Shown one piece after another: positions 2,026-26,442 of a stretch of 64,000 bases of DNA. Positions within the stretch are counted from its first letter, which is position 1. Every line of letters begins with the position of its first letter. The DNA comes from an uncultured Opitutaceae bacterium (GTDB taxonomy: Bacteria > Verrucomicrobiota > Verrucomicrobiia > Opitutales > Opitutaceae). The notes beneath the pieces were generated by a model. That model did not search any database. It saw only the letters and a list, made by a program, of their open reading frames with translations, and was not told the origin of the DNA. The stretch spans positions 627,627 through 691,626 of the forward strand of contig OX638348.1 in NCBI GenBank assembly GCA_951813085.1. Direction: 5' to 3'. The translations under genes and the position numbers were made by a program.

Positions 2026-3228
2026 ATGCCAGAATCGAAGTACATTGTAGTAGGAAATTCATCCGACGATCCCTTCGCGATCGATGTCGCATTCGCGATG
2101 GGACAGGGTGAGGACATCGCGGATCTCATCAGTATGAAACGGTTTGCCAATTCCGAATTCTGTCCGCGATTCATTTCCGATGAGCAGGACTTCAAGAATA
2201 TTGGAAATAAGCTGGAAGGAAAGAGCATCATTATCGTCAGTACCAGCAGCTTGGTAATGAGTCGCCAGAGCTTGGCGATGCGGAATCTAATGATCGCGCG
2301 CGCGGCCAAGGAGAATGGGGCGGCTGAGGTGATCCTTGTAGAGCCAGATCTCTATTACAGCGCCCAGGATCGCGGGCCACGCAGAGACCTTGGCGAGACG
2401 GCGATCGTTCGCGAAGAAAAGGATCTCAAGAAATTCGATGGGCAGCTTTTTACTGCAAAACTCTACGCTCAAATGCTCAAACTCGCTGGCGTGGATCGCG
2501 TGCTGACCGTGCACAATCACTCGTTCTCAGTGCAGTCGATGTTTACGGATGTATTCGAGGGCAAGTTCCATAACCTGATTCCCTACGACATATACGTCGA
2601 TTACTTGCTGAATTCCGATATTGTCGACTATGGCGAGAAAGGAGAAGGGCTCGCCTTGTGCGCACCGGATAAGGGAGCTCGCGCGTTCGTCAAGGAGATG
2701 TTCAAGCGGCTTGGCCTTGAAAAAGCGAAATTCGTGCTGCTGGACAAGGAACGGACGAGCGAACGTCAGGTGGAAATAAAGATCCACCAAAAGAGCGAAA
2801 CTTCGCTCGAGGATATTCAGGGACATGACATCGCTCTTTTCGATGACATGGTTCGCACGGGGTCCACCGTGGTGAAATCGTGCCAGCTGCTGAAGCAGGT
2901 CAATCCGGGCAAGACGGTGTTTGCGCTCACTCACTTTTACGCAAGCGAAGAAGGTCGCGTGAAGATGGCGAATACAGCAATCGATGAAATTCTTACCTTG
3001 AATACGATTCCGACGGTCTTGAATCGGGACATTCAAGGCCGATTGAGAAAGAAGATGGTCGTACTGAAAATCGAGAAGTGGATGGCTTTGAATCTGTGCC
3101 GCATTCTAGATTTAGCCCAACCCGAGATGGGAGATAGCTTGTACGCGATCGATATGTCGTCGAAAAACACTCGCTGGAAGCGCAAGATCTGGCTGAGCGA
3201 GCAGCTCAAGAAACTGAATCCTGCCTAG
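2026..3228 (+). CDS. Ribose-phosphate pyrophosphokinase (PRPP synthetase)-like protein with about 80-aa C-terminal extension
   Basis: N-terminal Prs-like layout (…KSIIIVSTSS…NLMIARAAKENGAAEVILVEPDLYYSAQDRG…) and a PRPP-binding phosphoribosyltransferase motif (ALFDDMVRTGSTV). At 400 aa it is longer than canonical Prs (about 315 aa). Confidence 0.6.
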   Translation: MPESKYIVVGNSSDDPFAIDVAFAMGQGEDIADLISMKRFANSEFCPRFISDEQDFKNIGNKLEGKSIIIVSTSSLVMSRQSLAMRNLMIARAAKENGAAEVILVEPDLYYSAQDRGPRRDLGETAIVREEKDLKKFDGQLFTAKLYAQMLKLAGVDRVLTVHNHSFSVQSMFTDVFEGKFHNLIPYDIYVDYLLNSDIVDYGEKGEGLALCAPDKGARAFVKEMFKRLGLEKAKFVLLDKERTSERQVEIKIHQKSETSLEDIQGHDIALFDDMVRTGSTVVKSCQLLKQVNPGKTVFALTHFYASEEGRVKMANTAIDEILTLNTIPTVLNRDIQGRLRKKMVVLKIEKWMALNLCRILDLAQPEMGDSLYAIDMSSKNTRWKRKIWLSEQLKKLNPA

Positions 3229-3312
3229 GCGTCTCTTATTTCGCTCATCGCCGGTTCCCTATAAGGTTCGTATGTAGGCTTGGCATCGTCCAGATTACGG
3301 TTTGTATAAGTA

Positions 3313-7412: not shown

Positions 7413-8942
7413 GTGAGCCCCATGACCGGACAACGTTGCGCATCTCTCGATCACCTTCTTGGAAGATGGCTTTGGTCCATCGCGTTTGGAATTTCGATCA
7501 TTTGCAACTCGGTGCTGCATGCCGGCGAAAGCGCGGTAGCGAATGCGATAGAACTGGGCTCCTTCGATCACGCAGCGAAGTTGATTGAAAATGGCGCAAG
7601 CGTTTCCGCATCCCAAGCGGATGGAATGACGCCGCTTCACTGGGCCGCTCGTCACGGAGATGTTGAACTATCAAAGCTCCTCCTTTCCAAGGGAGCGGAT
7701 CCCGCGGTGGAGAATCGATATGGGATCGCGCCGCTTTACCTCGCATGCGTCAATGGCAACGCGGAATTGACTGCGGCATTGTTGGCTGCAGGCGCTGATC
7801 CGGAAACGGCGATTAGAGGGGGTGAAACTGCGTTGATGACGGCGTCACGTACGGGAGATCTTGATACGGTTGTGAAATTGCTGGATGCAGGAGCTGAAGT
7901 TAACGCGAAGGAACGCAAGGGCCAGACCGCTTTGATGTGGGCGGCTGCTGAAGGGCATTTGGATGTGGTCAAGCTGCTGATAGATGCAGGAGCCGATCCA
8001 GAGATAAGATTGAAGGTTTCAGGCTACACAGCGTTTTTCTTCGCCGTACGGGAAGGGCATAGCGATATCGTGCATCACTTCTTGAGCTTGGGCGCTGACT
8101 TGAGCAAACCTATGGATGCGAGCCGTTTTAATGGGACGCTGCCGAACAGGGGAACGACGCCTTTGCTTCTGGCGGTTGAGAATGGTCATTTTGACCTTGC
8201 GATTGAGTTGCTCGATTCGGGAGCGGATCCCAATGACATGACGCCTGGCTTTTCGATATTGCATGCGTTAACCTGGATTCGAAAGCCGGACATTGGCGAA
8301 TCGGCTATGGGCGCTCCCCCTCCAAAGGGATCAGGGAAACGCAATAGCGTTCAGTTTATTCGAGATTTAGTTGCCCGGGGAGCGGATGTGAATCTTCGGC
8401 GGAAATCAGGCCAACGCGCTGGCAATGGTCGCGTGAGCTTCGTCGGCGCGACTGCCTTTTTTATGGCTGCGGATCGAGCAGATCTGCCTTATATGAAGCT
8501 ACTCGTCGAGTTAGGAGCGGATCCGCATATCCCCAATGAGGATGGATCTACATCGCTTTTGGTCGCCGCAGGAGTGGGGAGCCGCGCCCCTGAAGAAGAG
8601 GCGGGTTCCGAGGAGGAATGCCTTGCAGCAGTCCAGTACTTGGTTGGCCTAGGTTCCGATGTAAATGCAGTGGACGCGAATGGCCATTCCGCGATGCACG
8701 GAGCCGCGTTGAAGAATATTCCTTCTATGGTTCACTACTTGAATGCGCAGGGCGCCGATGTCGGTATCTGGAATCGAAAAAATAGCGATGGCTGGACACC
8801 GCTTCTAATCGCCGAAGGCTACCGTCCTGGAAATTTCAAGCCTTCGTTTGCCACCGTAGATGCGATATCGGAAGTAATGATTGCAAATGGAACGCCGATA
8901 CCAACCGATCCTAAGCCAAAGCATACCAACTACGCGAACTAG
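7413..8942 (+). CDS. Ankyrin-repeat protein, secreted
   Basis: Multiple ANK repeats (GMTPLHWAARHGDVELSKLLLSKGADP…, GQTALMWAAAEGHLDVVKLLIDAGADP…, GTTPLLLAVENGHFDLAIELLDSGADP…). Hydrophobic N-terminus. Starts 11 bp after the DUF1552 stop. Confidence 0.8.
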   Translation: MSPMTGQRCASLDHLLGRWLWSIAFGISIICNSVLHAGESAVANAIELGSFDHAAKLIENGASVSASQADGMTPLHWAARHGDVELSKLLLSKGADPAVENRYGIAPLYLACVNGNAELTAALLAAGADPETAIRGGETALMTASRTGDLDTVVKLLDAGAEVNAKERKGQTALMWAAAEGHLDVVKLLIDAGADPEIRLKVSGYTAFFFAVREGHSDIVHHFLSLGADLSKPMDASRFNGTLPNRGTTPLLLAVENGHFDLAIELLDSGADPNDMTPGFSILHALTWIRKPDIGESAMGAPPPKGSGKRNSVQFIRDLVARGADVNLRRKSGQRAGNGRVSFVGATAFFMAADRADLPYMKLLVELGADPHIPNEDGSTSLLVAAGVGSRAPEEEAGSEEECLAAVQYLVGLGSDVNAVDANGHSAMHGAALKNIPSMVHYLNAQGADVGIWNRKNSDGWTPLLIAEGYRPGNFKPSFATVDAISEVMIANGTPIPTDPKPKHTNYAN

Positions 8943-8959: not shown

Positions 8960-11900
8960 CTACGTGGAAAGAGATCTTGTATCCTCAGAAGAGGTGTCGT
9001 CTTTTCTGAATACGAATTGAATGTATCCAAAGAATCGCACGCGCAGGTCATCGAATAGGGTATAGAACAAGGGGACGACCAGAAGGGTGAGAATGGTTGC
9101 GGTGAGCATTCCTCCCATCATAGCGCGGCCGAGTGGCGAATAGGATACATCCATCATTTTCGTATCACCCATGGACATAGGGATCATTCCGAAAATGGTT
9201 GTGAGCGACGTCATCCATATCGGACGAAAGCGCCGTTTGCAGGCTTCTACGATTGCATCCATCCGCTTAAGCCCTTCCGCGCGGAGCCGCGTTATGAGGT
9301 CGATAAGGACAATCCCGTTATTCACGACGACGCCAAGCAATATGATTGTACCGATTGTCGCCATAATATTGAAGCTGGTTCTCGTTAGGTAGAGCGTCCA
9401 CACGACTCCAACGCCGGCGAGAGGCATCGTTAGGAAAATGGAGAAGGGTAAGATGAATGACTCGAACATCGCTCCCATCAAAAGAATGATGAATACGATA
9501 ATCATTATGAGTGTGAATGTGAATGTTTCGTTGGTTTCCTGCATTTGCCGATACTGGCCGCCCTTGTCCCAACGGTAGCCTCGTGGAAACTCCAAGCCCT
9601 TCATAACGGCATCCGTGCGTTGGAACAGCGCCTTTGAGTCTTTTTCCGTGGCGATTCCCTGAACTCTCATGATCGTCTTGCGATCTTGGCGACGTATGCT
9701 GCGCGATCCGGCTTCGTAGGACAGCGTTGCGAGCGATTCGAGGGGAACGAGAGTACCGTCATTCCCTTCGAACGTCAGTCGTTGCACGTGGGCGACGCTT
9801 TCTCGATCACTTTCATCGAGCCATATGCGAATCCGGCTGCGGCGACCATTGTCATCATAATAGTAGCCGACGATATTGCCTCGGATCGCATAGGATATGG
9901 CTCCCGATATCGCCTGCGTCTGTATGCCGAAGTGATTGGCCCTTTCCCTGTCTAGAATGATGTTCATTTCCTGGCGCTGCATGTCCTCATCCGTTTCCAC
10001 TGCAACGAGGCCTTCCACGGTTCGTAGACGACGCTCTACTTCCTGGCTTAGGGACTTGAGCGTTTCGGTGTCATCGCCGTATAGTGTAACGTTGAAGACT
10101 TTGGTGGGGTCCTGATCTTTGGCGTTGAAACGGAGTTGGGCTCCTGGAGGCGTTTCAATCTTTTCACGGAGATCTTCGATTATTTCTTGGCGCGTCAAAT
10201 GCGGATTGTCCCATAGTCCGATCGACCCCATTAGCGATTGATAGCCTGTTACGTACCATGGTTTCACTGCTTCGTCGAATTGGAGTTCAATGTTTCCTTC
10301 CGACGCAGTATAGAACGAGGAGTAGGTATCGAAGTTATATCTCTCCTTCTCTGAATCCAAATGCTCGTAGACGGTGTGGAAGTATCGTTCGATGGTTTCG
10401 AGCGACTGCCCCCCGGGAAACTCGTACCGCAATCTGACGTCCTGAGGGCCGCCGGCTCCGAGATCTTTGCCGATGTTTTGAAACGGAACGGCTATCGATA
10501 GCCCGATAAGAGCCATCAGTATTATTGATGCATAGCTTCTTTGCCTTAGGGTCCAGCGAAGCATTCCCAGGTAGAACTGCGCAATTCTCGAATTGGATTC
10601 GGTTCCATTTTTCGTATTTACTCTCTCGTTAAATACTTTTGTAGCCAACGGTATTAGAAGGAGGGCAATGAGTAGAGAGGCGATTAGGCTTAGCATGACC
10701 GGAACGCCAATTCGAAGGAGCCAGAATTGAAGTTCATCTCCTTCCCCCATGAGGATGAGAGGGAGAAAGACGACGATCGTAGTCAGGGTAGCCAGCGTTA
10801 TTGCCATGCCCATTTCGCTGGCTCCGAGAAGAGATGCTTTACTTGGATTCAATCCCAGTTGCCTCTTAACGTGTATGTTCTCTACAATTACAATTGAATT
10901 GTCGACGACGAGTCCAACGCTCAGCAAAAGCCCCATCATCGTCGCCATGTTAAGCGACCATCCCAGGAAATATAAGGCTATGATGGACGCTAGGATCGAA
11001 AGCGGAATCGCGAGCATGATCGTTATTGTCATCTTCGCGGAACGCAGAAACAGGAATAGGACGATAACTGAAAAAAGCCCGCCCCAAAGGCCGGCATTCT
11101 TCAGATTGTTGACCGACTCCGTTACATGTTTTCCTTGATTCCAAAACACATGGAATTTAACGGAGTCTAATTCGGGCAATGCTTCCAGCTCGTTCAATGC
11201 GGCAACGACGTCTTCACAAACCTGGACGATATTCGCTCCGGATGACCGCGTAATCTCGATACCGTAGCTTCGATCCCTTTCTAAAGCAAAGACGCGCCAG
11301 GTATCTTCCGGCTCCGGATCAATCGTTGCGATGTCGCCTAGGAAAAGCCCTATATCCGTATCTACGGGAATCGTATTGAATGTCTCGAGATCGGGAATGC
11401 GACCGACGGAACGTACGAAAAGCTCCCGATCGGATTCTTCAACCAGTCCGGCGCTCAGGTTAAAATTTTGATTGTTCAATGTGGCCGCCAAGCGCGCGAC
11501 GCTTATGTTGTGGGCTTTGACCTTGTCGTGATCGAGTTCGATGCGGATCTCGCGTCCACGAACTCCATTCATCTCAACGTTGCCCACTCCATTGATACGT
11601 TGAAGAGCAGGGAGAATGTACCGATCCGATGCGTAATCGACGTCCACCTTGCTCTCATCGATCGACATGGCCGCAAAGAGTATGGGTATGTCATTGGCGC
11701 TAAACTTGTAGACGTTGATTTGCTCTACTTCGTCAGGAAGCTCAGGCATAACGCGATCCATGCGGTCGCGAACATTCGCGTATGCTTCGCTGATATCGAT
11801 CCCTCGATGAAACGTAACAAATACTTGAGAATACGATTCTCGGGAGATGGCAGTGATGCGATCGATTCCTGGAACGGTTCCAAGCCCTTCTTCGACTTTT

Positions 11901-12115
11901 TTCGTTATCTTTTCCTCGGTATCGGTAGGATTGGTGTTTGGATAGGCAATGCCTAGGAAGAGCGCTGGACTTTCCATGTCGTCTGGAAACAAGGCGATGG
12001 GGATTCTTATATAAGCAATCGCTCCTACGACGAGTAGGGTGAGCAGGCTCATCGTCACCAAAGTGGGCCGTTTTACGGACAATGAAGGGAGTATGCTGTG
12101 GTTTCTTCCTTCCAT
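8960..12115 (-). CDS. RND efflux permease (HAE1 family; MdtC/AcrB-like), second pump of a tandem pair
   Basis: 1051 aa with a typical RND N-terminus (…VTMSLLTLLVVGAIAYIRIPIALFPD…) and 12-TM architecture. Its ATG directly abuts the TAG of the upstream RND gene. Confidence 0.85.
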   Translation of the reverse strand: MEGRNHSILPSLSVKRPTLVTMSLLTLLVVGAIAYIRIPIALFPDDMESPALFLGIAYPNTNPTDTEEKITKKVEEGLGTVPGIDRITAISRESYSQVFVTFHRGIDISEAYANVRDRMDRVMPELPDEVEQINVYKFSANDIPILFAAMSIDESKVDVDYASDRYILPALQRINGVGNVEMNGVRGREIRIELDHDKVKAHNISVARLAATLNNQNFNLSAGLVEESDRELFVRSVGRIPDLETFNTIPVDTDIGLFLGDIATIDPEPEDTWRVFALERDRSYGIEITRSSGANIVQVCEDVVAALNELEALPELDSVKFHVFWNQGKHVTESVNNLKNAGLWGGLFSVIVLFLFLRSAKMTITIMLAIPLSILASIIALYFLGWSLNMATMMGLLLSVGLVVDNSIVIVENIHVKRQLGLNPSKASLLGASEMGMAITLATLTTIVVFLPLILMGEGDELQFWLLRIGVPVMLSLIASLLIALLLIPLATKVFNERVNTKNGTESNSRIAQFYLGMLRWTLRQRSYASIILMALIGLSIAVPFQNIGKDLGAGGPQDVRLRYEFPGGQSLETIERYFHTVYEHLDSEKERYNFDTYSSFYTASEGNIELQFDEAVKPWYVTGYQSLMGSIGLWDNPHLTRQEIIEDLREKIETPPGAQLRFNAKDQDPTKVFNVTLYGDDTETLKSLSQEVERRLRTVEGLVAVETDEDMQRQEMNIILDRERANHFGIQTQAISGAISYAIRGNIVGYYYDDNGRRSRIRIWLDESDRESVAHVQRLTFEGNDGTLVPLESLATLSYEAGSRSIRRQDRKTIMRVQGIATEKDSKALFQRTDAVMKGLEFPRGYRWDKGGQYRQMQETNETFTFTLIMIIVFIILLMGAMFESFILPFSIFLTMPLAGVGVVWTLYLTRTSFNIMATIGTIILLGVVVNNGIVLIDLITRLRAEGLKRMDAIVEACKRRFRPIWMTSLTTIFGMIPMSMGDTKMMDVSYSPLGRAMMGGMLTATILTLLVVPLFYTLFDDLRVRFFGYIQFVFRKDDTSSEDTRSLST

Positions 12116-15100
12116 CTATATCGGTGCGCTAGCTCCTGCTTCCGGAAGGGAATCCTCATCTTTGATCAAATCTACGACCCGCTCTCTGTCGATAAGCGAA
12201 TAGGCGCATGGGATCACTATAAGCGTCAGGAGAGTGGATACACTGAGACCGGATATGACAGTTATCGCGAGCGGAACGCGTATTTCCGCGCCTTCTCCCA
12301 TCCCTAAAGCCATAGGCGTTATGCCGAGAACGGTTGTCATGGTCGTCATCAGAATAGGTCGAAAACGAATGAGGCAGGCCTTCTTGATCGCGTCTCCTTT
12401 TTCCATGCCATCCCGACGCCTGAGCGTGTTGATGTAGTCTACCAATACAATAGCATTGTTGACGACGATGCCGGCCAGCATAATTAGTCCGATGAATACA
12501 AGAATATTCAATGTCCAACCTCCGGTATAGAGAGTGAGCAAAACGCCGATCATCCCAAGGGGGACAGTTAATAGGATTATAAGAGGGTGCACGAGTGATT
12601 CGAACTGGCTCGCCATTACGATGTATACGAGGAAAAGCGCCAGGCCGAGAGCGAATATCATGCTTGATGTGGAACGTTCCATTTCCTCACGCTGTCCAGC
12701 GATGCTGTAGGCGAAGCCCGCAGGAAATTCGAGTTGATTGAGCGATGCTTGAATTCGGCGAGAGGCTTCCGCCAAGTCGATGGAATCCACGTTCGCATAG
12801 ATGACCGTTCCACGCTGCTGGTCGATATGTCGGACTTCATTGGCTCCCTCCTTGACGATGAAATCCGCTACAGCTGATAGCTGAATAGGGAACTCTCCAC
12901 GAGGGTTGACGATCAGTTTCTTGAGGTCTTCGAGTCCGTAGCGATCATCTTCTTCGATGCGCACGCGAATATCGATTTGGCGGTCTTTTTTTCGGAACGT
13001 CGTAGCCACACGCCCTTGAACTTTATTGCGTACGAGCTCCGCTATGGGGCGTAGCTCGAGGCCGAGTTGCACGATACGCTTTCGATCATAGATGATCTGA
13101 ACCTCCGGACTCCCAGGCTGCAAGTTCGAGCGGGCGTCCACGATTCCGGGAATGCCACTAAGCTGATCGACGACTCTAGCGCTAAGCCCTTTCATCGTAT
13201 CTAGATCGTATCCAAATAATTCCACCTCGATTGGCGCTTTTGAACTAAATAGGACAGGGTAGTCGATTTCCATGGCCAGGTCTGGAATATTGGCCGCTCG
13301 ATTCCTGAGATCAGCAATTAGACTTTGCTCCAGCGCTTCGCTCGATCCTGAATCCATTACGACGGTAATGCGTGACGTGTGTTCACCTTCATCCGCATCG
13401 CTAGTCGCTCCTTTTTCAGTTCCTACAGCGGTAGCGAACGAAGCGACTCGATCGTCGTTATCCAATAGTGATTCGATTGTTATGATAGTAGAGGCGGTCT
13501 TCACGATGGGGGTTCCAACCGGTAGTTTCGAATCTATGTAAAATTCTCCTTGCCGCGTTTCGGGTATCAATTCGTTTCCGATTAATGGATACACGTAGAT
13601 CATGCAAAGAGTAAATGATCCAAATGCGATTGCGAGAACGACGACGCGTGCATTCAATGCAGCGATTAAGAACCCTTCGTATACACGGCTTAGGGTTGTA
13701 ATGAATAGCTTCGAAAGGGCGAGGGCCGGTTTGGTCAGGGAAAGGAGAAATCCTAGGAGCTTACCAATCAAGAATACCAAAAAGATGACAACGAGATTGA
13801 TCGATTCGAACAGTTTTCCTATAATTTGGAATACGAACTCAATCAGCAATATTGCTATGTTGATCGTCTGGATGGGAATGTAGCCGCATAATTGAACAAT
13901 CTTTAGAAGCCCGCTTGCTTGCTTTAAGCTGTCGTCGTAGGCGTTCCATCGTTCCCTGAATCTTGCGAATGGTTGGATAAGAAACGAAAGATTCCAGTAG
14001 GATATACGAGTCTTAGCGCTCGAGTTCACGGAAGCGCTACGAGACGCGAGCATCGGTATGAAGAAAAGCGCTACGAGTAGAGAGGCAATGAGGGAGAAAA
14101 CGACTGTCAATGACATATCGCCAAACACTTGTCCTGCAACTCCCTCGACGAATACGATCGGAAAGAATACGGCTATGGTTGTAAGAGTTGACGCAAATAC
14201 AGCGCCGCCTACTTCGGATACGCCCCGAATCGTTGCCGCTTTTATCTCATCTCCTTCTTCTCTACAGCGTGAGATGCTCTCCAGAACCACGATTGAATTG
14301 TCTACCAGCATGCCAATGCCAAGCGCGAGTCCCCCAAGCGAAATGATATTCAGTGACACATCGCTCAAATACATGGGAGCGAAGGTTGCGATGACGGATA
14401 CGGGGATTGTAATCCCGATGATGAGGGTGGTGCCTACTTTTCGCAGGAAAAGAAATATCACGGTTACTGCGATCAATCCACCGAATACAGCATTGCCCTT
14501 TACCTCCTCGATAGACGCTTTTATAAAAATGGATTGGTCGGTGAGTACGCCGATAGAGATACCGGGAGGCATCTTGTAAGCGATAAAGTCCGTTAGCCTC
14601 AGGTGATCGCGTAAGGTAGGCTCTTTCGGCTTAGTCGGCGATTCGCTCTTGTCCGATTTTTTCGATTCAGTTGATTCGTTATCGGCATTCGATTTCTTTT
14701 CCTGCTCTTCAACGTATTCGATTTGGGCGGGGAGGCCGAAAATTCGATTTCTTACCAACCGCGCTACTTCCACGATATTGGCATTTGCTTCCTTGTATAT
14801 TTCGACTTCGATGCTTTCGACACCGTTAACGCGGGTAATGATCTCTCTTTCCTTATGCTTCGCTTCGACCCGCGCGAAATCGCGTAGTCGAATATCCACT
14901 CCATTTTTCTCCGCGATGACAATGTTCGCCATATCGCTTATCGACTGGAACTCATTCAATGTACGAATCATGTACTGAGTCTCGCCCTCATCGAGTTGTC
15001 CACCAGGGATGTTGACGTTATTTTCAGCCAGCTTGTTGTTCACCTGCTGAATATCCAACCCGAGCGATGCCAGTTTATGCTCGTCGATATTGACTTGGTA

Positions 15101-15694
15101 TTCCTCTTCCAGGCCGCCTTTGACCCGAACAGCAGCCAACCCCTCTTCGCCTTCGAGGTCACGTTGAAGAACATCCTCAACGATAACGCGAAGCTCGTCC
15201 AAAGGGATTTTATCGCTGGTAACCCCAATTCTCATTATGGGATCGAGGGTAGGGTCGTACCTTAATATTAGCGGACGGGTGGCTTCTTCAGGAAGACGGA
15301 CGCGATCCATCTTTTCCCGTATCTCCTGAGTGATCAGACCCATGTCTGTATTCCAAGAGAACTCCATCACGATATCGGACTGCTCGGCCCTAGAAATGGA
15401 GCTGTGTGACTCCAAATTTGAAACGATCGCGAGTTGTTGCTCCAGTGGCTGAGAAATCTGGGTTTCTACCTCTTGAGGGGCGGTTCCCGGATATTCGGTA
15501 CGGATCGTCAAGCTCGGATATGAAATATCTGGCATGAGCGTCAGCGGCAATTTTTTATACGATACGAATCCGAATACGGAAACGGCTATGACGATCATCA
15601 AAATCGTTACTGGTCGCCGTGTGGAGATCTCAAATACGGAGGGTTTTTTCACGCGGCCGAGTAGTGATATCTTGGACGTTCGTTTGTATTCCAA
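12116..15694 (-). CDS. RND efflux permease (HAE1 family; MdtB-like), enlarged with insertions
   Basis: 1192 aa with RND N-terminus (…ILMIVIAVSVFGFVSYKKLPLTLMPDISYP…). Contains a K/E/S-rich low-complexity insert (…EEQEKKSNADNESTESKKSDKSESPTKPKEP…) and an extra hydrophobic segment between TM6 and TM7. Confidence 0.85.
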   Translation of the reverse strand: MEYKRTSKISLLGRVKKPSVFEISTRRPVTILMIVIAVSVFGFVSYKKLPLTLMPDISYPSLTIRTEYPGTAPQEVETQISQPLEQQLAIVSNLESHSSISRAEQSDIVMEFSWNTDMGLITQEIREKMDRVRLPEEATRPLILRYDPTLDPIMRIGVTSDKIPLDELRVIVEDVLQRDLEGEEGLAAVRVKGGLEEEYQVNIDEHKLASLGLDIQQVNNKLAENNVNIPGGQLDEGETQYMIRTLNEFQSISDMANIVIAEKNGVDIRLRDFARVEAKHKEREIITRVNGVESIEVEIYKEANANIVEVARLVRNRIFGLPAQIEYVEEQEKKSNADNESTESKKSDKSESPTKPKEPTLRDHLRLTDFIAYKMPPGISIGVLTDQSIFIKASIEEVKGNAVFGGLIAVTVIFLFLRKVGTTLIIGITIPVSVIATFAPMYLSDVSLNIISLGGLALGIGMLVDNSIVVLESISRCREEGDEIKAATIRGVSEVGGAVFASTLTTIAVFFPIVFVEGVAGQVFGDMSLTVVFSLIASLLVALFFIPMLASRSASVNSSAKTRISYWNLSFLIQPFARFRERWNAYDDSLKQASGLLKIVQLCGYIPIQTINIAILLIEFVFQIIGKLFESINLVVIFLVFLIGKLLGFLLSLTKPALALSKLFITTLSRVYEGFLIAALNARVVVLAIAFGSFTLCMIYVYPLIGNELIPETRQGEFYIDSKLPVGTPIVKTASTIITIESLLDNDDRVASFATAVGTEKGATSDADEGEHTSRITVVMDSGSSEALEQSLIADLRNRAANIPDLAMEIDYPVLFSSKAPIEVELFGYDLDTMKGLSARVVDQLSGIPGIVDARSNLQPGSPEVQIIYDRKRIVQLGLELRPIAELVRNKVQGRVATTFRKKDRQIDIRVRIEEDDRYGLEDLKKLIVNPRGEFPIQLSAVADFIVKEGANEVRHIDQQRGTVIYANVDSIDLAEASRRIQASLNQLEFPAGFAYSIAGQREEMERSTSSMIFALGLALFLVYIVMASQFESLVHPLIILLTVPLGMIGVLLTLYTGGWTLNILVFIGLIMLAGIVVNNAIVLVDYINTLRRRDGMEKGDAIKKACLIRFRPILMTTMTTVLGITPMALGMGEGAEIRVPLAITVISGLSVSTLLTLIVIPCAYSLIDRERVVDLIKDEDSLPEAGASAPI

Positions 15695-15696
15695 TA

Positions 15697-16824
15697 CTAG
15701 CCTTCGCTGGGTCGCGACTGGTTGGACGTCTCCGCATTTCGAACCGATAGGCTATCGTCGACAATCTTTACCTTCGCGCCATCTTTCAGGGCATTGTGAC
15801 CGAGGATAATGATCGATTCGCCCTCATCCAGGCCATTGAGCGATTCGATGCGATCGCTATTCGCGTATCCAGGATGAAACTCTGTCTTTTCGGCGATGGC
15901 ATCTTTCACTTTGTAAATGTACATTTTCTCTCCTTCGTGAACGATTGCTGCCTTGGGTATGATCACTGCATCGGGTTTCGTATCCAACACGATCCTAACG
16001 GTCACGAACATCCCGGGATAAATAGGGGTCGCGCTGTTGTGGTCTACAGCGACCTTAACATTGAAGGTACCGCTGGCAGAGTCGATAGCTGGGCTGACAA
16101 GCTTCACTTCGGCATCATACGATACGCCCTCGATAATTTCAGAGACAATTTCCGATTTGAGACCTTTCTGGATGTGTAGCATATGCTGCCCAGGAATGTT
16201 CACCTGAGCGAAAAGCTCGTCCATATTTAGGAGCGAGAAAAGCGCATTGCTTCCTGAAACCCGTTCTCCTTCTTGAGTGAGTCGCTTTGAAATAACTCCG
16301 GAAACAGGAGCTCGGACTTTCGTGTCCTCTAAACGGATACGGGAGCGCTCGTAGTTGATCTCCGCCTGCTCTAGATCGAAAAGCTCGGTATCGTATTCTT
16401 GTTGATTGATCAGGCTTCGATCAAACAGGTCCTGAGTCCTCTGAAATTTAGATTGCAGATGCTGATAGCGCGAAAGGGACTCCTTGACGTTAACTTGCTC
16501 TTCTTCGTTTTCGAGTTGAGCGATTATTTGTCCAGCCTCGACCGCATCGCCAACCTCGGCGAGCACTTCAACGACGAGTCCAGTGGATTCTGGGAAAATC
16601 TCAACGGCGCTTTCGGTTTCAAGAATCGAGTCGAACTCAAGGAAAGAAGAAATTTCACCGCGTTCAGCGGTTGCAACCTTTACGGGAATTTCGGTGACGA
16701 CTTCCTTCTCTTCCGAATCGGCTTTCGCGTCCTTGCCGTTACCTGGCGAATCTCCTACTTTCCCGCAACTCACGAGGATGATGCAGGCCAAGGAGGCGAT
16801 AAAGATTCGATAGAGGGTTTTCAT
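15697..16824 (-). CDS. RND efflux periplasmic adaptor (membrane fusion protein, HlyD/MdtA-like), lipoprotein
   Basis: Lipoprotein signal (…LACIILVSCGK). Coiled-coil plus beta-barrel MFP layout. First gene of the MFP-RND-RND operon on the minus strand. Confidence 0.85.
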   Translation of the reverse strand: MKTLYRIFIASLACIILVSCGKVGDSPGNGKDAKADSEEKEVVTEIPVKVATAERGEISSFLEFDSILETESAVEIFPESTGLVVEVLAEVGDAVEAGQIIAQLENEEEQVNVKESLSRYQHLQSKFQRTQDLFDRSLINQQEYDTELFDLEQAEINYERSRIRLEDTKVRAPVSGVISKRLTQEGERVSGSNALFSLLNMDELFAQVNIPGQHMLHIQKGLKSEIVSEIIEGVSYDAEVKLVSPAIDSASGTFNVKVAVDHNSATPIYPGMFVTVRIVLDTKPDAVIIPKAAIVHEGEKMYIYKVKDAIAEKTEFHPGYANSDRIESLNGLDEGESIIILGHNALKDGAKVKIVDDSLSVRNAETSNQSRPSEG

Positions 16825-22976: not shown

Positions 22977-23099
22977 TTCAGTGTAGATTCCGGCTATTTG
23001 CTATCAGTTGGACAGTGCTGGCTTGGTCAAAATTGATTACTCTAGATAACGGAAAGAAATCGCATCACTAAATAAGTACAACGTCAATCGGGACTAGTT

Positions 23100-23119
23100 G
23101 GTAGTGTCCTAATTTGAAT
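23100..23119 (+). repeat. Terminal inverted repeat, left copy (overlaps the transposase stop codon)
   Basis: 20/20 match to the reverse complement of 25571-25590. Confidence 0.7.
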
Positions 23120-23777
23120 CGGTCCTTTCGACAAGCTCCGCGACCGACATTTGAGAATCCATCACACCGGCCTCCATTGCAGGAGCGCAACGAATCGTTT
23201 GGTGACGTTCGCAGAGGTTGCAGTATGCGTAGTGCAATGAGATTGCCGCTTCGAAATTGCGGCGCTTCTTACTGAATGCGTTGGTCAAGCGGCTTAGACG
23301 GCGGCAATGCATGCGGGCTGTGTGATTCTGCTTCTCGATATATGAGGTCGAAACCTTCTTCATGTCTGGGTTTCCCGCTTCGACCCTTCTTTCGATATGC
23401 ATGCATTCGGGCGGCGAATAACGGCGGCTTTCCGCAAGATCGTCCATGAGTCGCATTGCGCGAGGCAAGTCGCGATCTCCCACAACGACAGAAGGCGCAA
23501 GCTTAGTGTCGGCATCGATCGCAGACCAAACCCAAACGTCACCAAATCCTGGATCAAGCTTGTTCTTGGCTACCGTCTTCTTCTTGGCGCCGATGAATCC
23601 CCGCATTTCGTCAGCTTGGATGCTGCTACATGCGAGACCACGCATCGACTCATCGAGAAGCTTGCGGCATCCCTCTCCGACCCTGACACCAAGACGCATG
23701 ATCGCGTCACGGTGAATTGAGGTCATGCGTTCAATGGAGCGGACACGATTGCCTTCGCAGAGCATTGATACCGCCAT
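23109..23777 (-). CDS. IS1-family transposase (InsAB-like; lacks N-terminal zinc finger, possibly degenerate)
   Basis: Recalled similarity to IS1 InsB: …ADEMRGFIGAKKK… matches AEMDEQWGYVGAKSR; …VVVGDRDLPRAMRLMDDL… matches HVFGERTMATLGRLMSLL; …YIEKQNHTARMHCRRLSRLTNAFSKK… matches [27 protein letters not shown]. An HTH-like InsA-type segment precedes it. The segment corresponding to the IS1 'TDGW' catalytic region is not evident. Confidence 0.7.
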   Translation of the reverse strand: MAVSMLCEGNRVRSIERMTSIHRDAIMRLGVRVGEGCRKLLDESMRGLACSSIQADEMRGFIGAKKKTVAKNKLDPGFGDVWVWSAIDADTKLAPSVVVGDRDLPRAMRLMDDLAESRRYSPPECMHIERRVEAGNPDMKKVSTSYIEKQNHTARMHCRRLSRLTNAFSKKRRNFEAAISLHYAYCNLCERHQTIRCAPAMEAGVMDSQMSVAELVERTDSN

Positions 23778-23939
23778 TGTTTTGCTTTCGATTGTTTGCC
23801 ATGTCGTTTTCTCAACTTGATTGATATTCTGCTTTAATCAGTATGCTAGCCAATTAAAAAAGTAGGAAAGGAGTCGAATCTTGGCTGCGCTAGGGAAGGG
23901 GCTGGAGGACCAAAGGGCCAGACGAAGAAAAAGGTCTCC

Positions 23940-24371
23940 GTGTCGCTGGACAAGGAGACCCTAGGGAAAGCTTTAAGGAAATGGGGCGGGGATAAGACCT
24001 CTCAGCTACTGGGCGCCCTTCTTAAGGAGCATGTAAAGAAGCAGCGCTTTATTCAATTCAAGCTTGCAGCCTGCGGGGCTCGAACCCATGCCTCCGAGCT
24101 GGGAAGAGGCGCGGTTCGCCGATTGGCCCAAGGCTGCGAATTGGTCGAGCCCTCGCGCCTCACGGGAGAATCCGCCAAGGTTCACACTCCTGCGGGGCGC
24201 CGTCGTTTTGTTCGCGCGGGTGCGGGCGGCTCGTTGTCCATCGCGGGGCCGAAGCCCTGCCTATCCTGCTATTTCACTACCACGCGCCCTGAAGCTTGCT
24301 GCAGCGCTTTGGCGAGCTGGGAAGAGGCAGCTAGCGTTGGTTACGCGCGCTGCCGGACATTTGGGGTTTAG
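23940..24371 (+). CDS. Small ribbon-helix-helix/VapB-like antitoxin-type N-terminus (first 45 aa or so); the rest of the ORF is probably non-coding GC-rich read-through
   Basis: N-terminus (V)SLDKETLGKALRKWGGDKTSQLLGALLKEHVKK has the pattern of small RHH/VapB-type antitoxins. Beyond about 24075 the ORF overlaps a tRNA-like remnant and reads like translated GC-rich non-coding DNA. Confidence 0.25.
   Translation: MSLDKETLGKALRKWGGDKTSQLLGALLKEHVKKQRFIQFKLAACGARTHASELGRGAVRRLAQGCELVEPSRLTGESAKVHTPAGRRRFVRAGAGGSLSIAGPKPCLSCYFTTTRPEACCSALASWEEAASVGYARCRTFGV
24065..24137 (-). tRNA. Degenerate tRNA-like remnant (73 nt; intact acceptor stem and T-arm, broken anticodon arm)
   Basis: On the minus strand there is a perfect 7-bp acceptor stem (GCAGCCT/AGGCTGC), discriminator A, and T-arm ATGGG-TTCGAGC-CCCGC. 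Total length is exactly 73 nt. The anticodon arm cannot form a canonical 5-bp stem with a 7-nt loop. Confidence 0.35.
24095..24110 (+). repeat. Direct repeat copy 1 (cgagctgggaagaggc) inside the tRNA-like remnant
   Basis: Identical 16-mer recurs at 24313-24328. Both copies are preceded by aagcttgc (24060-24067 and 24292-24299). The second copy looks like the first with the T-arm segment deleted. Confidence 0.5.
24313..24328 (+). repeat. Direct repeat copy 2 (partial duplicate of the tRNA-like remnant)
   Basis: See copy 1. Confidence 0.5.
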
Positions 24372-24602
24372 CGTAAATAGCGGATCCGCAAAGGTTTCAG
24401 TCTCAGCGATGAAGAAATATGGCCTTATAGAGGATGAGGGCAGCCGCGCCTCTCGCAAGATGCGGATATCTGAGCAGGGCATCGCATTATTGAAGCCATC
24501 AAATCCAGGAAGGCCCCGGCTTTTGGGGGAAGCGGCTTTGAAACCCGCAACCCATACCGAGCTATGGGAGCGGTTCGGCGGCGGGGGATCCGATGGCTAA
24601 GA

Positions 24603-25173
24603 CTACCTAGTTTTCGAACGGCGATTTACTGAAGCTGCCGCAAAGGCCCTAATCTCGCAATCTCGAGATACGATTTCATTTGCAAAGATAGGTGAAGGCG
24701 ATAGGGCCGAGGCGAATTCAGATGAAGAGAAAGAGCCGCCGCCCGTAGGTTCGCTTGCTCAATGGGCTTCTGGCGGCGTTGATCGGTTTGCAGAGCCTAA
24801 GAAAATTAAAGGCATGTCTGACGATGGCGAATGGGCCTTCGTTGATGGTAGCCCAACTGGGCTGCGTATGGCAGAAGCATCACTGGCGGAACCACCCCTT
24901 GCCAAAGGGGAGCAATCAAAGGCTCGAAGCCCGCCGCCCAATCCGTCTGCTCTCAAAAAAGAGCAAGCAAGCGGCGCGCAAGAAGCCCCTCCGGCAGAAG
25001 GCTACGCCAAGGAACGATTCACGACTGAGGAGGGTCCAGCGCTTTTGCGATGGCCCATGGAGCTTTCCGAAGATAGCGTGGAGGATATTGAATACTGGAT
25101 CGAGGGAGCGATGCGACGGGCGCGCCGAAAAGCAGGTTCGCCACCTGCAGGATCAGAATGGGCGAATGCTTAG
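24603..25173 (+). CDS. Hypothetical acidic, low-complexity protein (frame open upstream of the ORF-track M at 24814)
   Basis: Stop-free frame from about 24603 (…FERRFTEAAAKALISQSRDTISFAKIGEGDRAEANSDEEKEPPP…MELSEDSVEDIEYWIEGAMRRARRKAG…). No canonical start upstream of 24814. May be a frameshifted continuation of ORF 24064-24600. Confidence 0.3.
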
Positions 25174-25445
25174 CCAACCTCCCTGACGCCGCGACAGCAA
25201 TGCACGGCGTTCCCTGTTCGCATGTGGAGGCCGCTCGCGTCATTGAGGCGATGGACGGTAAGGAGGCTTGGAACGGCGAGGCTGGGGTGTTCGCGCTCTC
25301 AGGACACCCCCAGCCACAAATGCCTATGCGTGGGGCTACAAGGACGAGATTCAGTACATGGCTGCGCTAAATGTGCCGCCGATCCATTCAGCCCGTGAAG
25401 CCGTACAAGCAGCTATTGCCAGCGGAAATTTCTCGTGATCGACAT

Positions 25446-25529
25446 CGGGAGGGGGATTCGAACCCCCGGACGTATGGTACGTACGCCCGATTATCAATCG
25501 GATGCCTTAAGCCACTCAGCCATCCCTCC
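25446..25529 (-). tRNA. Type-II (Ser-like) tRNA pseudogene/remnant: anticodon loop reads GAU, acceptor stem 3' strand mismatched
   Basis: Minus strand reads GGAGGGA-TG-GCT-GAGTGGCTTAA-GGC-A-TCCGA-TTGATAA-TCGGG-[long variable arm CGT ACGTA CCA TACGT CC]-GGGGG-TTCGAAT-CCCCC-TCCCGAT. The D-arm and variable-arm layout matches tRNA-Ser. The anticodon is GAU rather than GCU/NGA. The last three acceptor pairs fail (3' strand …CCCGAT instead of …CCCTCC). It lies just inside the right IR. Confidence 0.45.
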
Positions 25530-25570
25530 ATAAGTTCTATCTTAGGAGAATCCGGCGTTTGGTCAATCAA

Positions 25571-25590
25571 ATTCAAATTAGGACACTACC
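25571..25590 (-). repeat. Terminal inverted repeat, right copy
   Basis: 20/20 match to the reverse complement of 23100-23119. Confidence 0.7.
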
Positions 25591-25665
25591 GAGGAAAGTC
25601 GTTGGTGTTCCTAAGAAGGACCAGAATTCGGTTTGGGACCCGATGACGGAGTTCCTAGGATTGGT

Positions 25666-26442
25666 TTATTCGAAAAAAGCTCGGTTATCGGGTTTGGCGT
25701 CCGGCGCCCATATCTTGATGTTGTCGACCCATCCGATGTCGTCGAACGAGCCGAATCCGATGAAGCCTTGGTCAAAGGGAACGTCGTCCGCGATCATGAT
25801 AGGCGTGAGCATGTCGTCGAAATAGAGGGCCACCGTGCTTTTCGCTACATCGCGCACGATGCGGATCTTTCGCCACTCGCTCACGCCCCAGTCTACGCCG
25901 ACCGTTCTGAAGTCAGTGATAGGCGTTCGGTCCGCCTCATTCACGACGAAGACATTGTGGGCGTTGTTGTCGCCGGTCTTGGCGATGTGGATATACATGT
26001 AGTGAGCGGGATCTTCGAACCCGAAGAAAAAGCAATGGTCCCGATGGGCGTAGCCGCGCCCTTGGGTCGGATCCGGGTTCTCCTCCATGAATTGAGCGAT
26101 AGGAGTGCCTTTCACGCCGCTTTGCAGAATGTCCACTTCCAAGACGAAGCTGCCGAACGTATAGCCTCTGATCAGGGCGATGTTCAACGGGGAGCGGTGG
26201 GGTGGCTCGTAGTCGCTCGCCCCTTCCAGGGCGAGGAGACGGTTTCCGTCTTCGCTTCGCAGGTTCCAGGCAGAAGCGTCCGTCATCATGAAGTCTTGTA
26301 TCGATTTCTGAGAGCTGAACGATTGCTTGTATTGAAGCTTGTATCCGTCGGGTAGGTCGTCGGGGGCGCCGATGAGGGCAGGAGAAACCAGGCTGATGAG
26401 CCAAGAAAGCGCGATGAATGGAGAGTAGCGTATAGGAAGCAT
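25666..26442 (-). CDS. DUF1080-type (3-keto-disaccharide hydrolase-like, LamG-fold) secreted protein
   Basis: ATG at 26440-26442 followed by a signal peptide (MLPIRYSPFIALSWLISLVSPALIG). The body (…FFFGFEDPAHYMYIHIAK…ALYFDDMLTPIM…FIGFGSFDD…) fits the DUF1080 jelly-roll family. The ORF-track upstream extension has no signal peptide. Confidence 0.65.
   Translation of the reverse strand: MLPIRYSPFIALSWLISLVSPALIGAPDDLPDGYKLQYKQSFSSQKSIQDFMMTDASAWNLRSEDGNRLLALEGASDYEPPHRSPLNIALIRGYTFGSFVLEVDILQSGVKGTPIAQFMEENPDPTQGRGYAHRDHCFFFGFEDPAHYMYIHIAKTGDNNAHNVFVVNEADRTPITDFRTVGVDWGVSEWRKIRIVRDVAKSTVALYFDDMLTPIMIADDVPFDQGFIGFGSFDDIGWVDNIKIWAPDAKPDNRAFFE

Follow-up and report, generated by a model that had tools for sequence, protein, structure and literature searches.

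A probable tRNA-Ser(GCU) pseudogene with a GAU anticodon, carried by a fossil IS1-family element in an Opitutaceae genome

Results and Discussion

The Locus

The window analysed here is a stretch of 64,000 nucleotides from an uncultured Opitutaceae bacterium (assembly GCA_951813085.1, contig OX638348.1, positions 627,627 to 691,626). One housekeeping protein encoded in it has a 52% identical relative under an Opitutaceae name, which makes a verrucomicrobial host probable. A single tRNA is called by ARAGORN in these 64 kb; it occupies 25530..25441 of the minus strand and receives the label tRNA-Ile(gat). The feature lies within a 2.49-kb insertion sequence (IS) of the IS1 family (23100-25590), whose ends are formed by a perfect 20-nt terminal inverted repeat (IR), GGTAGTGTCCTAATTTGAAT; the repeat is found only twice in the window, and chance alone would give 0 occurrences. 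Position 1 of the tRNA is 40-41 nt inside the right IR, in keeping with a first-pass annotation, made from the sequence letters, that had placed a tRNA directly inside this repeat. Going leftward from the tRNA, the element holds two cargo genes, whose counterparts in the closest copies encode proteins of 96 and 261 amino acids (aa), a second tRNA-like element, a gene encoding a 63-aa ribbon-helix-helix (RHH)-like protein, and a transposase gene that runs into the left IR (Table 1). We argue below that the tRNA is probably a nonfunctional pseudogene of tRNA-Ser(GCU), carried as cargo by a dead copy of the IS1-family element.

Structure and Identity of the tRNA

How complete is the tRNA? The Rfam model RF00005 matches 25529..25443 (minus strand) over its full length (model positions 1-71); the match scores 38.8 bits where the gathering score is 29, with E = 1.2e-4 when the window is taken as a whole. 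Read in the tRNA sense, the whole sequence is GGAGGGAUGGCUGAGUGGCUUAAGGCAUCCGAUUGAUAAUCGGGCGUACGUACCAUACGUCCGGGGGUUCGAAUCCCCCUCCCGAUG; arm by arm, its 5' half is GGAGGGA-UG-GCU-GAGUGGCUUAA-GGC-A-UCCGA-UUGAUAA-UCGGG and its 3' half is [CGU ACGUA CCA UACGU CC]-GGGGG-UUCGAAU-CCCCC-UCCCGAU-G, with the variable region in brackets. The D stem has 3 bp (GCU/GGC), and the anticodon arm has a 5-bp stem and the loop UUGAUAA, with GAU as the anticodon. The variable region, 18 nt long, forms a 5-bp stem (ACGUA/UACGU) with a CCA loop, and the T arm combines a perfect stem (GGGGG/CCCCC) with the loop UUCGAAU. ARAGORN and RF00005 thus both bear out the earlier description of a Ser-like, type-II tRNA with a GAU anticodon and clean D, variable, and T arms, and place it on the minus strand.

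In the Rfam alignment, exactly two pairs are nonstandard, G2·A71 and A3·G70, both of them in the acceptor stem. The first-pass annotation had all three terminal acceptor pairs failing, which is correct for these two but not for 1-72, a G·U wobble. The discriminator G73 is kept, and CCA is not encoded. According to ViennaRNA, the canonical acceptor pairs have an ensemble probability of ~0, compared with 0.79-1.0 once nucleotides 70-72 are changed in silico to UCC, and the cloverleaf energy is -23.3 kcal/mol for the actual sequence vs. -31.4 kcal/mol for the repaired one. Authentic tRNA-Ser(GCU) genes score 49.7-54.9 bits on RF00005, which puts the window tRNA 11-16 bits lower. By its RF00005 score the feature is a tRNA, but it lacks the 7-bp acceptor helix of a functional gene. 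An ARAGORN run had been proposed as the check on what was originally a folding by hand; it returns a tRNA with gat, while the Rfam alignment and ViennaRNA uphold the acceptor defect and give no intact pairing.

What kind of tRNA is it? Few sequences matched overall when the 87 nt were searched by BLAST against plasmid and phage collections, and the four best full-length relatives are all tRNA-Ser(GCT) according to ARAGORN; they lie on two Prevotella replicons, in Persicobacter, and in one Vibrio phage. These relatives confirm the tRNA-Ser(GCU) body. In a five-way alignment the four and the window tRNA share a common architecture column for column and an identical T arm, and the window tRNA departs from the Ser(GCU) design only at C35->A and at 70-72 (UCC->GAU). 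The cloverleaf is genuine tRNA-derived sequence of the Ser(GCU) type. A Rfam match to Plastid-psbI-rps4 3'UTR, antisense to the tRNA at 25446-25494 (plus strand; 35.3 bits vs. a threshold of 68), also points to Ser(GCU) similarity, assuming that this model overlaps plastid trnS-GCU in antisense. As a real element we rejected this match, which is below threshold (35 vs. 68 bits) and overlaps the tRNA in antisense, and we read it as an artefact.

The features on which synthetases rely were compared in the same way. The long variable arm with its stem, the 3-bp D stem, and the extended D loop are those of a type-II tRNA-Ser. A serine anticodon (NGA or GCU) is missing, GAU standing in its place, and of the Ser acceptor features (2-71, 3-70, and G73) the discriminator is present but both pairs are broken. 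Under the established identity rules of isoleucyl-tRNA synthetase, a tRNA-Ile(GAU) has a type-I scaffold, a short variable loop, and A73, a design that the window tRNA does not fit despite its GAU anticodon. A genuine tRNA-Ile is ruled out by the long variable arm, G73, and the Ser relatives; the software label simply reflects the anticodon. Neither seryl- nor alanyl-tRNA synthetase (SerRS and AlaRS) uses the anticodon (PMC6316282). Recognition by SerRS depends chiefly on the variable arm, and in bacteria and eukaryotes the acceptor pairs 2-71 and 3-70 contribute as well, the 3:70 pair being a determinant of tRNA-Ser function (PMC6316282).

The Surrounding Element and the Junction

Does the tRNA belong to the chromosome or to the IS? 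The closest copies of the element (L001-L003) have transposases 65-69% identical to that of the window (BLASTP) and the same IR. L001, a 3,082-bp element with an 8-bp target duplication, has the order IR, DUF4258/DUF2283 pair, 96-aa gene, 261-aa gene, tRNA-like element, 63-aa RHH-like gene, transposase, and IR, and the window element is colinear with it except at the far, cargo-side end. Homology to L001 falls into three segments of the window: 25591-25565 (the IR plus 7 nt), 25425-25149 (the 96-aa gene up to its stop), and 24244-23100 (the tRNA-like element through the transposase). Between the right IR plus 7 nt and the stop of the 96-aa gene is a slot that is occupied in the window by the Ser-type tRNA and its 34-nt leader, in L001 and L100 by a 620-nt toxin-antitoxin-like DUF4258/DUF2283 pair, and in L103-type elements by 129 nt of unrelated sequence. 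Because both sides of the ~120-nt tRNA segment are homologous to the interior of related IS elements, the tRNA lies inside the IS and not in chromosomal DNA.

Between tRNA position 69 and the complement of the 96-aa gene's stop codon there are only 8 nt (GAUGUCGA), and the tRNA's aberrant 3' end therefore falls at a junction, made by recombination or deletion, inside the element. This modifies the original explanation, that the 3' end of a tRNA-Ser was replaced when a mobile element integrated: the replacement is supported, with a junction no more than 8 nt from a cargo stop codon, but it is internal to an IS1-family element rather than an integrase att site.

The window element is a fossil, every component of which is damaged. 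Relatives of its transposase number in the thousands and are nearly all ~277 aa long; most of the listed 277-aa relatives carry a PF03400 match, JGI or NCBI gives several of them the name IS1 family transposase, and their named sources include Verrucomicrobiia and Akkermansiaceae. The window gene has lost 8 nt after codon 3 and, in frame, 132 nt (44 aa) from the catalytic core, and this internally deleted open reading frame (ORF), used as the query, scores 23.3 bits on the Pfam model DDE_Tnp_IS1, for which the cut-off is 24.1. The RHH-like gene has ATT for its ATG start and has lost its stop codon, the 261-aa gene is recognisable by tblastn only in its N-terminal third, and the 96-aa gene is frameshifted (blastx/tblastn). 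The flanks of the window element mismatch (GACTAGTT vs. GAGGAAAG; 23091-23099 and 25591-25599), leaving no target-site duplication there; nine related elements of 0.8-4 kb were also checked, and eight have an exact 8-bp target duplication while the ninth (L012) matches at 7 of 8 positions. A second 222-aa transposase with the same deletion (P0121), 98% identical, is on record on one 4.85-Mb contig. Recombination between two copies would explain the missing target duplication. Taken together, P0121 and the absent duplication suggest that the dead element was duplicated and that the copies then recombined.

Table 1. Coordinates of the features of the window element and of recurrent features in related elements
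Feature	Position	Strand	Evidence
Type-II pseudo-tRNA (probable), derived from tRNA-Ser(GCU)	25443..25529 (ARAGORN span 25441-25530)	-	ARAGORN, RF00005, Ser(GCT) relatives
Anticodon GAU, C35->A relative to GCU of all close relatives	25493..25495	-	Sequence, alignment
Aberrant acceptor nucleotides 70-72, GAU for the needed UCC	25444..25446	-	Rfam alignment, five-way alignment, pair probabilities
Right (cargo-side) inverted repeat, GGTAGTGTCCTAATTTGAAT	25571..25590	-	Repeat search; bounds related elements with 8-bp target duplications
Promoter-like TTGACC-16 nt-TAAGAT, ending 10 nt upstream of tRNA position 1	25539..25566	-	Consensus scan
96-aa cargo protein pseudogene; frameshift near 25307-25313, stop 25436-25438 abutting the tRNA 3' end	25158..25438	+	blastx/tblastn in two frames, blastn to L001
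N-terminal remnant of the 261-aa cargo gene	24208..24546	+	tblastn, 26% identity, E = 6e-8
Second, degraded tRNA-like element (the family-conserved one)	24065..24137	-	Rfam 20.9 bits, alignment
63-aa RHH-like gene remnant, divergent from the transposase in related copies	23853..24041	+	tblastn, 81% identity to the L001 protein
Defective IS1-family transposase gene	23109..23795; open remnant of 222 aa at 23777..23109	-	Pfam, alignments, tblastn
Left (transposase-side) inverted repeat, overlapping the transposase stop codon	23100..23119	+	Repeat search
Two-gene cargo module	L001 4402-5474; L103 3378-4612; window 24208-25438 (degraded)	-; +; +	
UUA tRNAs of related elements	L065 4740-4823; L086 4745-4830; L103 2936-3020 (also L105, L112); L022 4622-4697; L075 4731-4803		ARAGORN

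How might such a feature have formed, and what would become of its transcript? A tRNA-Ser(GCU) gene would have become cargo of the IS, and an internal recombination or deletion would have joined the end of the 96-aa gene to the tRNA at position 69-77, at the cost of the authentic 3' acceptor strand. C35->A could be either a later neutral mutation or an earlier change. In a transcript started at the promoter-like site the acceptor helix could not form, and RNase P, the CCA-adding enzyme, SerRS, and EF-Tu all depend on that helix. Transfer RNAs with unstable acceptor stems beginning with GG receive a CCACCA tag and then decay. No mature, charged tRNA would be expected to accumulate, and hence no Ser-for-Ile misincorporation. 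The first-pass annotation had raised the prospect of serine being misinserted at Ile codons; two things make this unlikely: the fossil state of the element and the destruction of the acceptor helix, 2-71 and 3-70 with it.

tRNAs and tRNA-like Elements in Related Copies

How widespread are tRNAs in this group of elements? A second tRNA-like element, ~260-335 nt upstream of the transposase start and on the same strand, is conserved among the closest IS copies. On the Rfam tRNA model it reaches 45.5 bits in L001 (5666-5738) and 43.7 in L002 (753-825), but 20.9 in the window. Its acceptor and T arms are perfect, whereas its anticodon arm, with a UUCCCA motif, is irregular; between L001 and L002 the pair 27-43 shows a compensatory change. 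Among distant relatives in viral contigs, ARAGORN finds a tRNA 95-230 nt upstream of the transposase and on its strand in 9 of 78, compared with 0 of 78 on the opposite strand and 1 of 77 downstream. Wherever ends can be defined, these upstream tRNAs fall inside the duplication-delimited element (e.g., L065, a 1.3-kb IS, and L075), and many combine perfect acceptor, D, and T arms with irregular anticodon arms.

Three lineages (L065, L086, and L103) carry well-formed type-II tRNAs with the loop CUUUAAA and the ochre anticodon UUA; over all IS loci, ARAGORN calls "tRNA-Stop(tta)" more often than any other tRNA. The type-II UUA tRNAs are closest to authentic tRNA-Leu(UAA), which has the loop CUUAAAA; the anticodon difference is at position 35, the acceptor changes are fully compensated, and A73 is kept. 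The UUA tRNAs of L065, L075, and L103 lie within mapped IR boundaries, and those of L086 and L022 in or next to an IS whose ends are undefinable. The L103 tRNA sits in a transposase-less, IR-bounded element, upstream of 313-aa and 98-aa genes. Bacterial leucyl-tRNA synthetase (LeuRS) likewise ignores the anticodon. These UUA tRNAs may be mobile nonsense suppressors.

Some further associations between these elements and tRNAs were also seen. L023, an IS copy searched with relaxed ARAGORN thresholds, has a 72-nt tRNA-like sequence ~303-374 nt upstream of its transposase with G3·U70, A73, and an encoded CCA (GGGGAGC...GCTCTCCACCA), which are alanine-type identity features. In the viral contig L075, the insertion point of the IS is 28 nt past the 3' end of a tRNA-Thr(GGT) gene (3222-3296; 3325), and phage tRNA clusters contain or adjoin several other copies (e.g., L085). 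Transposase-less elements of 0.5-1.4 kb with the same IR and 8-bp target duplications (L008 2397-3169; L012 9637-10138; L014 7367-8602; L104 3166-4520) look like derivatives mobilised in trans, either similar to miniature inverted-repeat transposable elements or consisting of cargo only.

Are there other copies of the window tRNA itself? Two different tRNA cores of 19-30 nt were used as probes, one of them with N at anticodon position 35. The core GGCATCCGATTGNTAATCGG has 0 matches in IMG/VR and 3 in 185,579 representative genomes, none of them related (two non-tRNA sequences and one tRNA-Asn in a tRNA array), and the core GCGTACGTACCATACGTCCGGGGGTTCGAA has 0 matches in JGI metagenomes. One chance match of GGCATCCGATTGNTAATCGG falls in L005 (2229-6623), where 27 tRNA genes lie within 4.4 kb in a metagenome-assembled genome of the Jatrophihabitantaceae (Actinomycetota). 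A pattern of the IR plus 6 nt, which was over-specified, gave 0 matches in metagenomes. When all related sequences gathered were read 400 nt inward from their ends, a tRNA was found in the IR-proximal interior at 1 of 40 distinct ends, that of the window; the other 39 have none, either beside the 96-aa gene or just inside the IR.

A two-gene cargo module (190-313 aa and 96-98 aa, with overlapping stop and start) recurs in retrieved elements with this IR (Table 1), and every copy of the 96-aa gene with retrieved DNA (L001, L100, and L102-L112) adjoins or sits between copies of it. The 96-aa protein family is small, with 49 homologs, many on contigs shared with homologs of the IS1-family transposase, and a viral scan with the 96-aa profile gave one partial locus. 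The cargo proteins have no significant match in Pfam, PHROG, or PADLOC. AlphaFold models the 96-aa protein confidently (predicted local distance difference test score of 93) as a helix, a four-stranded sheet, and a helix, and a Foldseek search of the PDB with this model gave no match at E < 0.001. Elsewhere in the window, the gene at 7413-8942 (plus strand) encodes an ankyrin-repeat protein with partial similarity, far below threshold, to the MzaA sigma factor of the MZA anti-phage system (121 bits vs. 800); it adjoins an RND efflux operon (8960-16824).

Weighing the Alternatives

Several observations weigh against the feature being a simple pseudogene. Outside 35 and 70-72 the tRNA body is flawless (U8, A14, G18G19, U33, A37, the GUUCGAAUC T loop, and all stems), which contrasts with the heavy decay of the remaining element. 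A promoter-like pair sits where a tRNA promoter would be expected; it is the sole such site in 23000-25800, but about 1.3 are expected by chance, so that only its position is suggestive, and its -35 overlaps IS-end sequence common to related copies (IS-end homology 25565-25591). The tandem mismatch 5'-GA-3'/3'-AG-5', which received no special modelling here, can be fairly stable in RNA helices. Intact IS relatives carry well-formed tRNAs altered at the same position 35, and the GAU anticodon might not be a random lesion. The tRNA could also be kept beside the second copy of the deleted transposase, P0121. As for a role as a terminator, a scan of 23000-25800 found no terminator-like site, and that candidate was rejected.

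Could the GAU anticodon record, or still serve, a function in translation? The window copy might be the dead descendant of a once-functional, IS-borne Ser-type tRNA with GAU that SerRS charged, a mobile recoding or mistranslating tRNA whose 3' end was lost later. The Leu-like UUA tRNAs of related elements offer a parallel to GCU->GAU in their change at position 35, their three lineages with compensated acceptor stems and A73, and the prevalence of the "tRNA-Stop(tta)" call; the anticodon-blindness of SerRS, AlaRS, and LeuRS, the otherwise intact body, and the promoter-like site fit as well. Such an ancestor is nonetheless unlikely. An intact Ser(GAU) tRNA was found in none of the collections searched, and the window tRNA lies outside the family's conserved tRNA position, which is held by the second tRNA-like element; moreover, a tRNA that misreads a sense codon (AUY->Ser) would be much more toxic than one that suppresses stops, and one C->A in a pseudogene requires no selection. 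That the tRNA is matured and serylated today despite its mismatches, and delivers Ser at AUU and AUC, is hardly credible. It does retain the long variable arm on which SerRS chiefly relies, G73, and an upstream promoter-like site, and tandem G·A pairs with the G·U might hold a distorted helix, but ViennaRNA predicts that the acceptor helix does not form, the 2-71 and 3-70 contributions to SerRS recognition are gone, CCA is not encoded, and all neighbouring genes of the element are dead. The unstable acceptor, which starts with GG, would also expose the transcript to CCACCA tagging and degradation, and misreading of a common sense codon is strongly counterselected.

Two further explanations leave decoding aside. 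It is very unlikely that the feature is a structural tRNA-like RNA acting in cis, as a processing signal for RNase P and RNase Z or as insulation against transcripts entering the right end. The window tRNA reads inward from the IR on the same strand, transposase-strand tRNA-like elements recur upstream in the subfamily at the frequencies given above, many with noncanonical anticodon loops, and the conserved upstream element may act likewise; yet RNase P and RNase Z need the broken acceptor helix too, the element around it is dead, the slot holds a tRNA in none of the other elements, and the sequence clearly descends, and recently, from a decoding tRNA-Ser. An att-site remnant, left as the truncated 5' part of a chromosomal tRNA-Ser when a tyrosine-recombinase element entered its 3' end, with the adjoining IS repeat a coincidence, is extremely unlikely. 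Integration most often targets the 3' ends of tRNA genes, and the break, at position 69/70, is in the 3' acceptor strand. Such a junction, however, would come with a direct repeat of the tRNA 3' segment and an integrase gene: within 3 mismatches the T arm plus 3' acceptor matches nowhere else in the 64 kb, and the ORFs inspected within the element and beside it include no integrase. The displaced 3' fragment (TCCCTCC...) that had been expected nearby is absent as well, GGGGGTTCGAATCCCCCTCCCTCC matching only the window tRNA itself at up to 3 mismatches across the window. The tRNA segment has IS-interior homology on both sides, and integrase-type integration normally regenerates an intact tRNA.

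What does a probable pseudogene of tRNA-Ser(GCU) imply for its host and its element? Annotation pipelines will mislabel it as tRNA-Ile, and it should not be counted in decoding capacity, nor as a sign of Ser/Ile ambiguity. The feature itself is of little weight; the IS family around it is more useful and merits a separate look. A broader and doubtful reading is that the IS1 subfamily with the IR GGTAGTGTCCTAATTTGAAT and an 8-bp duplication systematically mobilises anticodon-switched tRNAs on the scaffolds of anticodon-blind synthetases. Its cases would be the Leu-like UUA tRNAs of several active or intact elements, possibly an Ala-like tRNA, and the Ser-type GAU tRNA of the window as a dead example, often in company with the pair of 190-313-aa and 96-aa genes. 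If this were true, IS elements would move recoding or suppressor tRNAs among genomes and phages, and if the UUA tRNAs are charged, transposons would be vehicles of nonsense suppressors, with a bearing on stop-codon recoding and on the manipulation of translation by mobile elements. A literature search found no paper describing tRNA genes as cargo of IS1-family elements.

Comparison with Known Systems

The closest parallels to the window feature are tRNA pseudogenes and truncated tRNAs at mobile-element junctions, in which, as here, the 3' acceptor strand is lost at the junction while the body stays recognisable and is still called by tRNA finders. The window junction differs in lying beside a cargo gene inside an IS1-family cargo element rather than at an att site, with no duplicated 3' fragment and no regenerated tRNA. 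Anticodon-mutant tRNA-Ser mistranslators, whether engineered (yeast tRNA-Ser UGG) or natural (human variants), share the Ser scaffold, the long variable arm, and a non-Ser anticodon; unlike the window tRNA, whose 2-71 and 3-70 are destroyed, they have an intact acceptor and are demonstrably charged.

Passenger-carrying members are known in the IS1 and IS1595 families (ISfinder). The element resembles such transporter IS in its single transposase ORF, probably of the DDE_Tnp_IS1 type, its ~20-nt IRs, the 8-bp duplications of its relatives, and the variable cargo between IR and transposase, and differs in that the relatives' cargo includes tRNA or tRNA-like genes and the uncharacterised pair of 190-313-aa and 96-aa genes, the window copy itself being defective and without a target duplication. 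To our knowledge, the phage suppressor tRNAs described so far concern mainly TAG and TGA recoding. The Leu-like UUA tRNAs of related elements are like phage and plasmid suppressor tRNAs in being mobile-borne, with a stop anticodon on the scaffold of an anticodon-blind synthetase, whereas the window tRNA is a broken one with a sense (Ile) anticodon in a chromosomal IS fossil.

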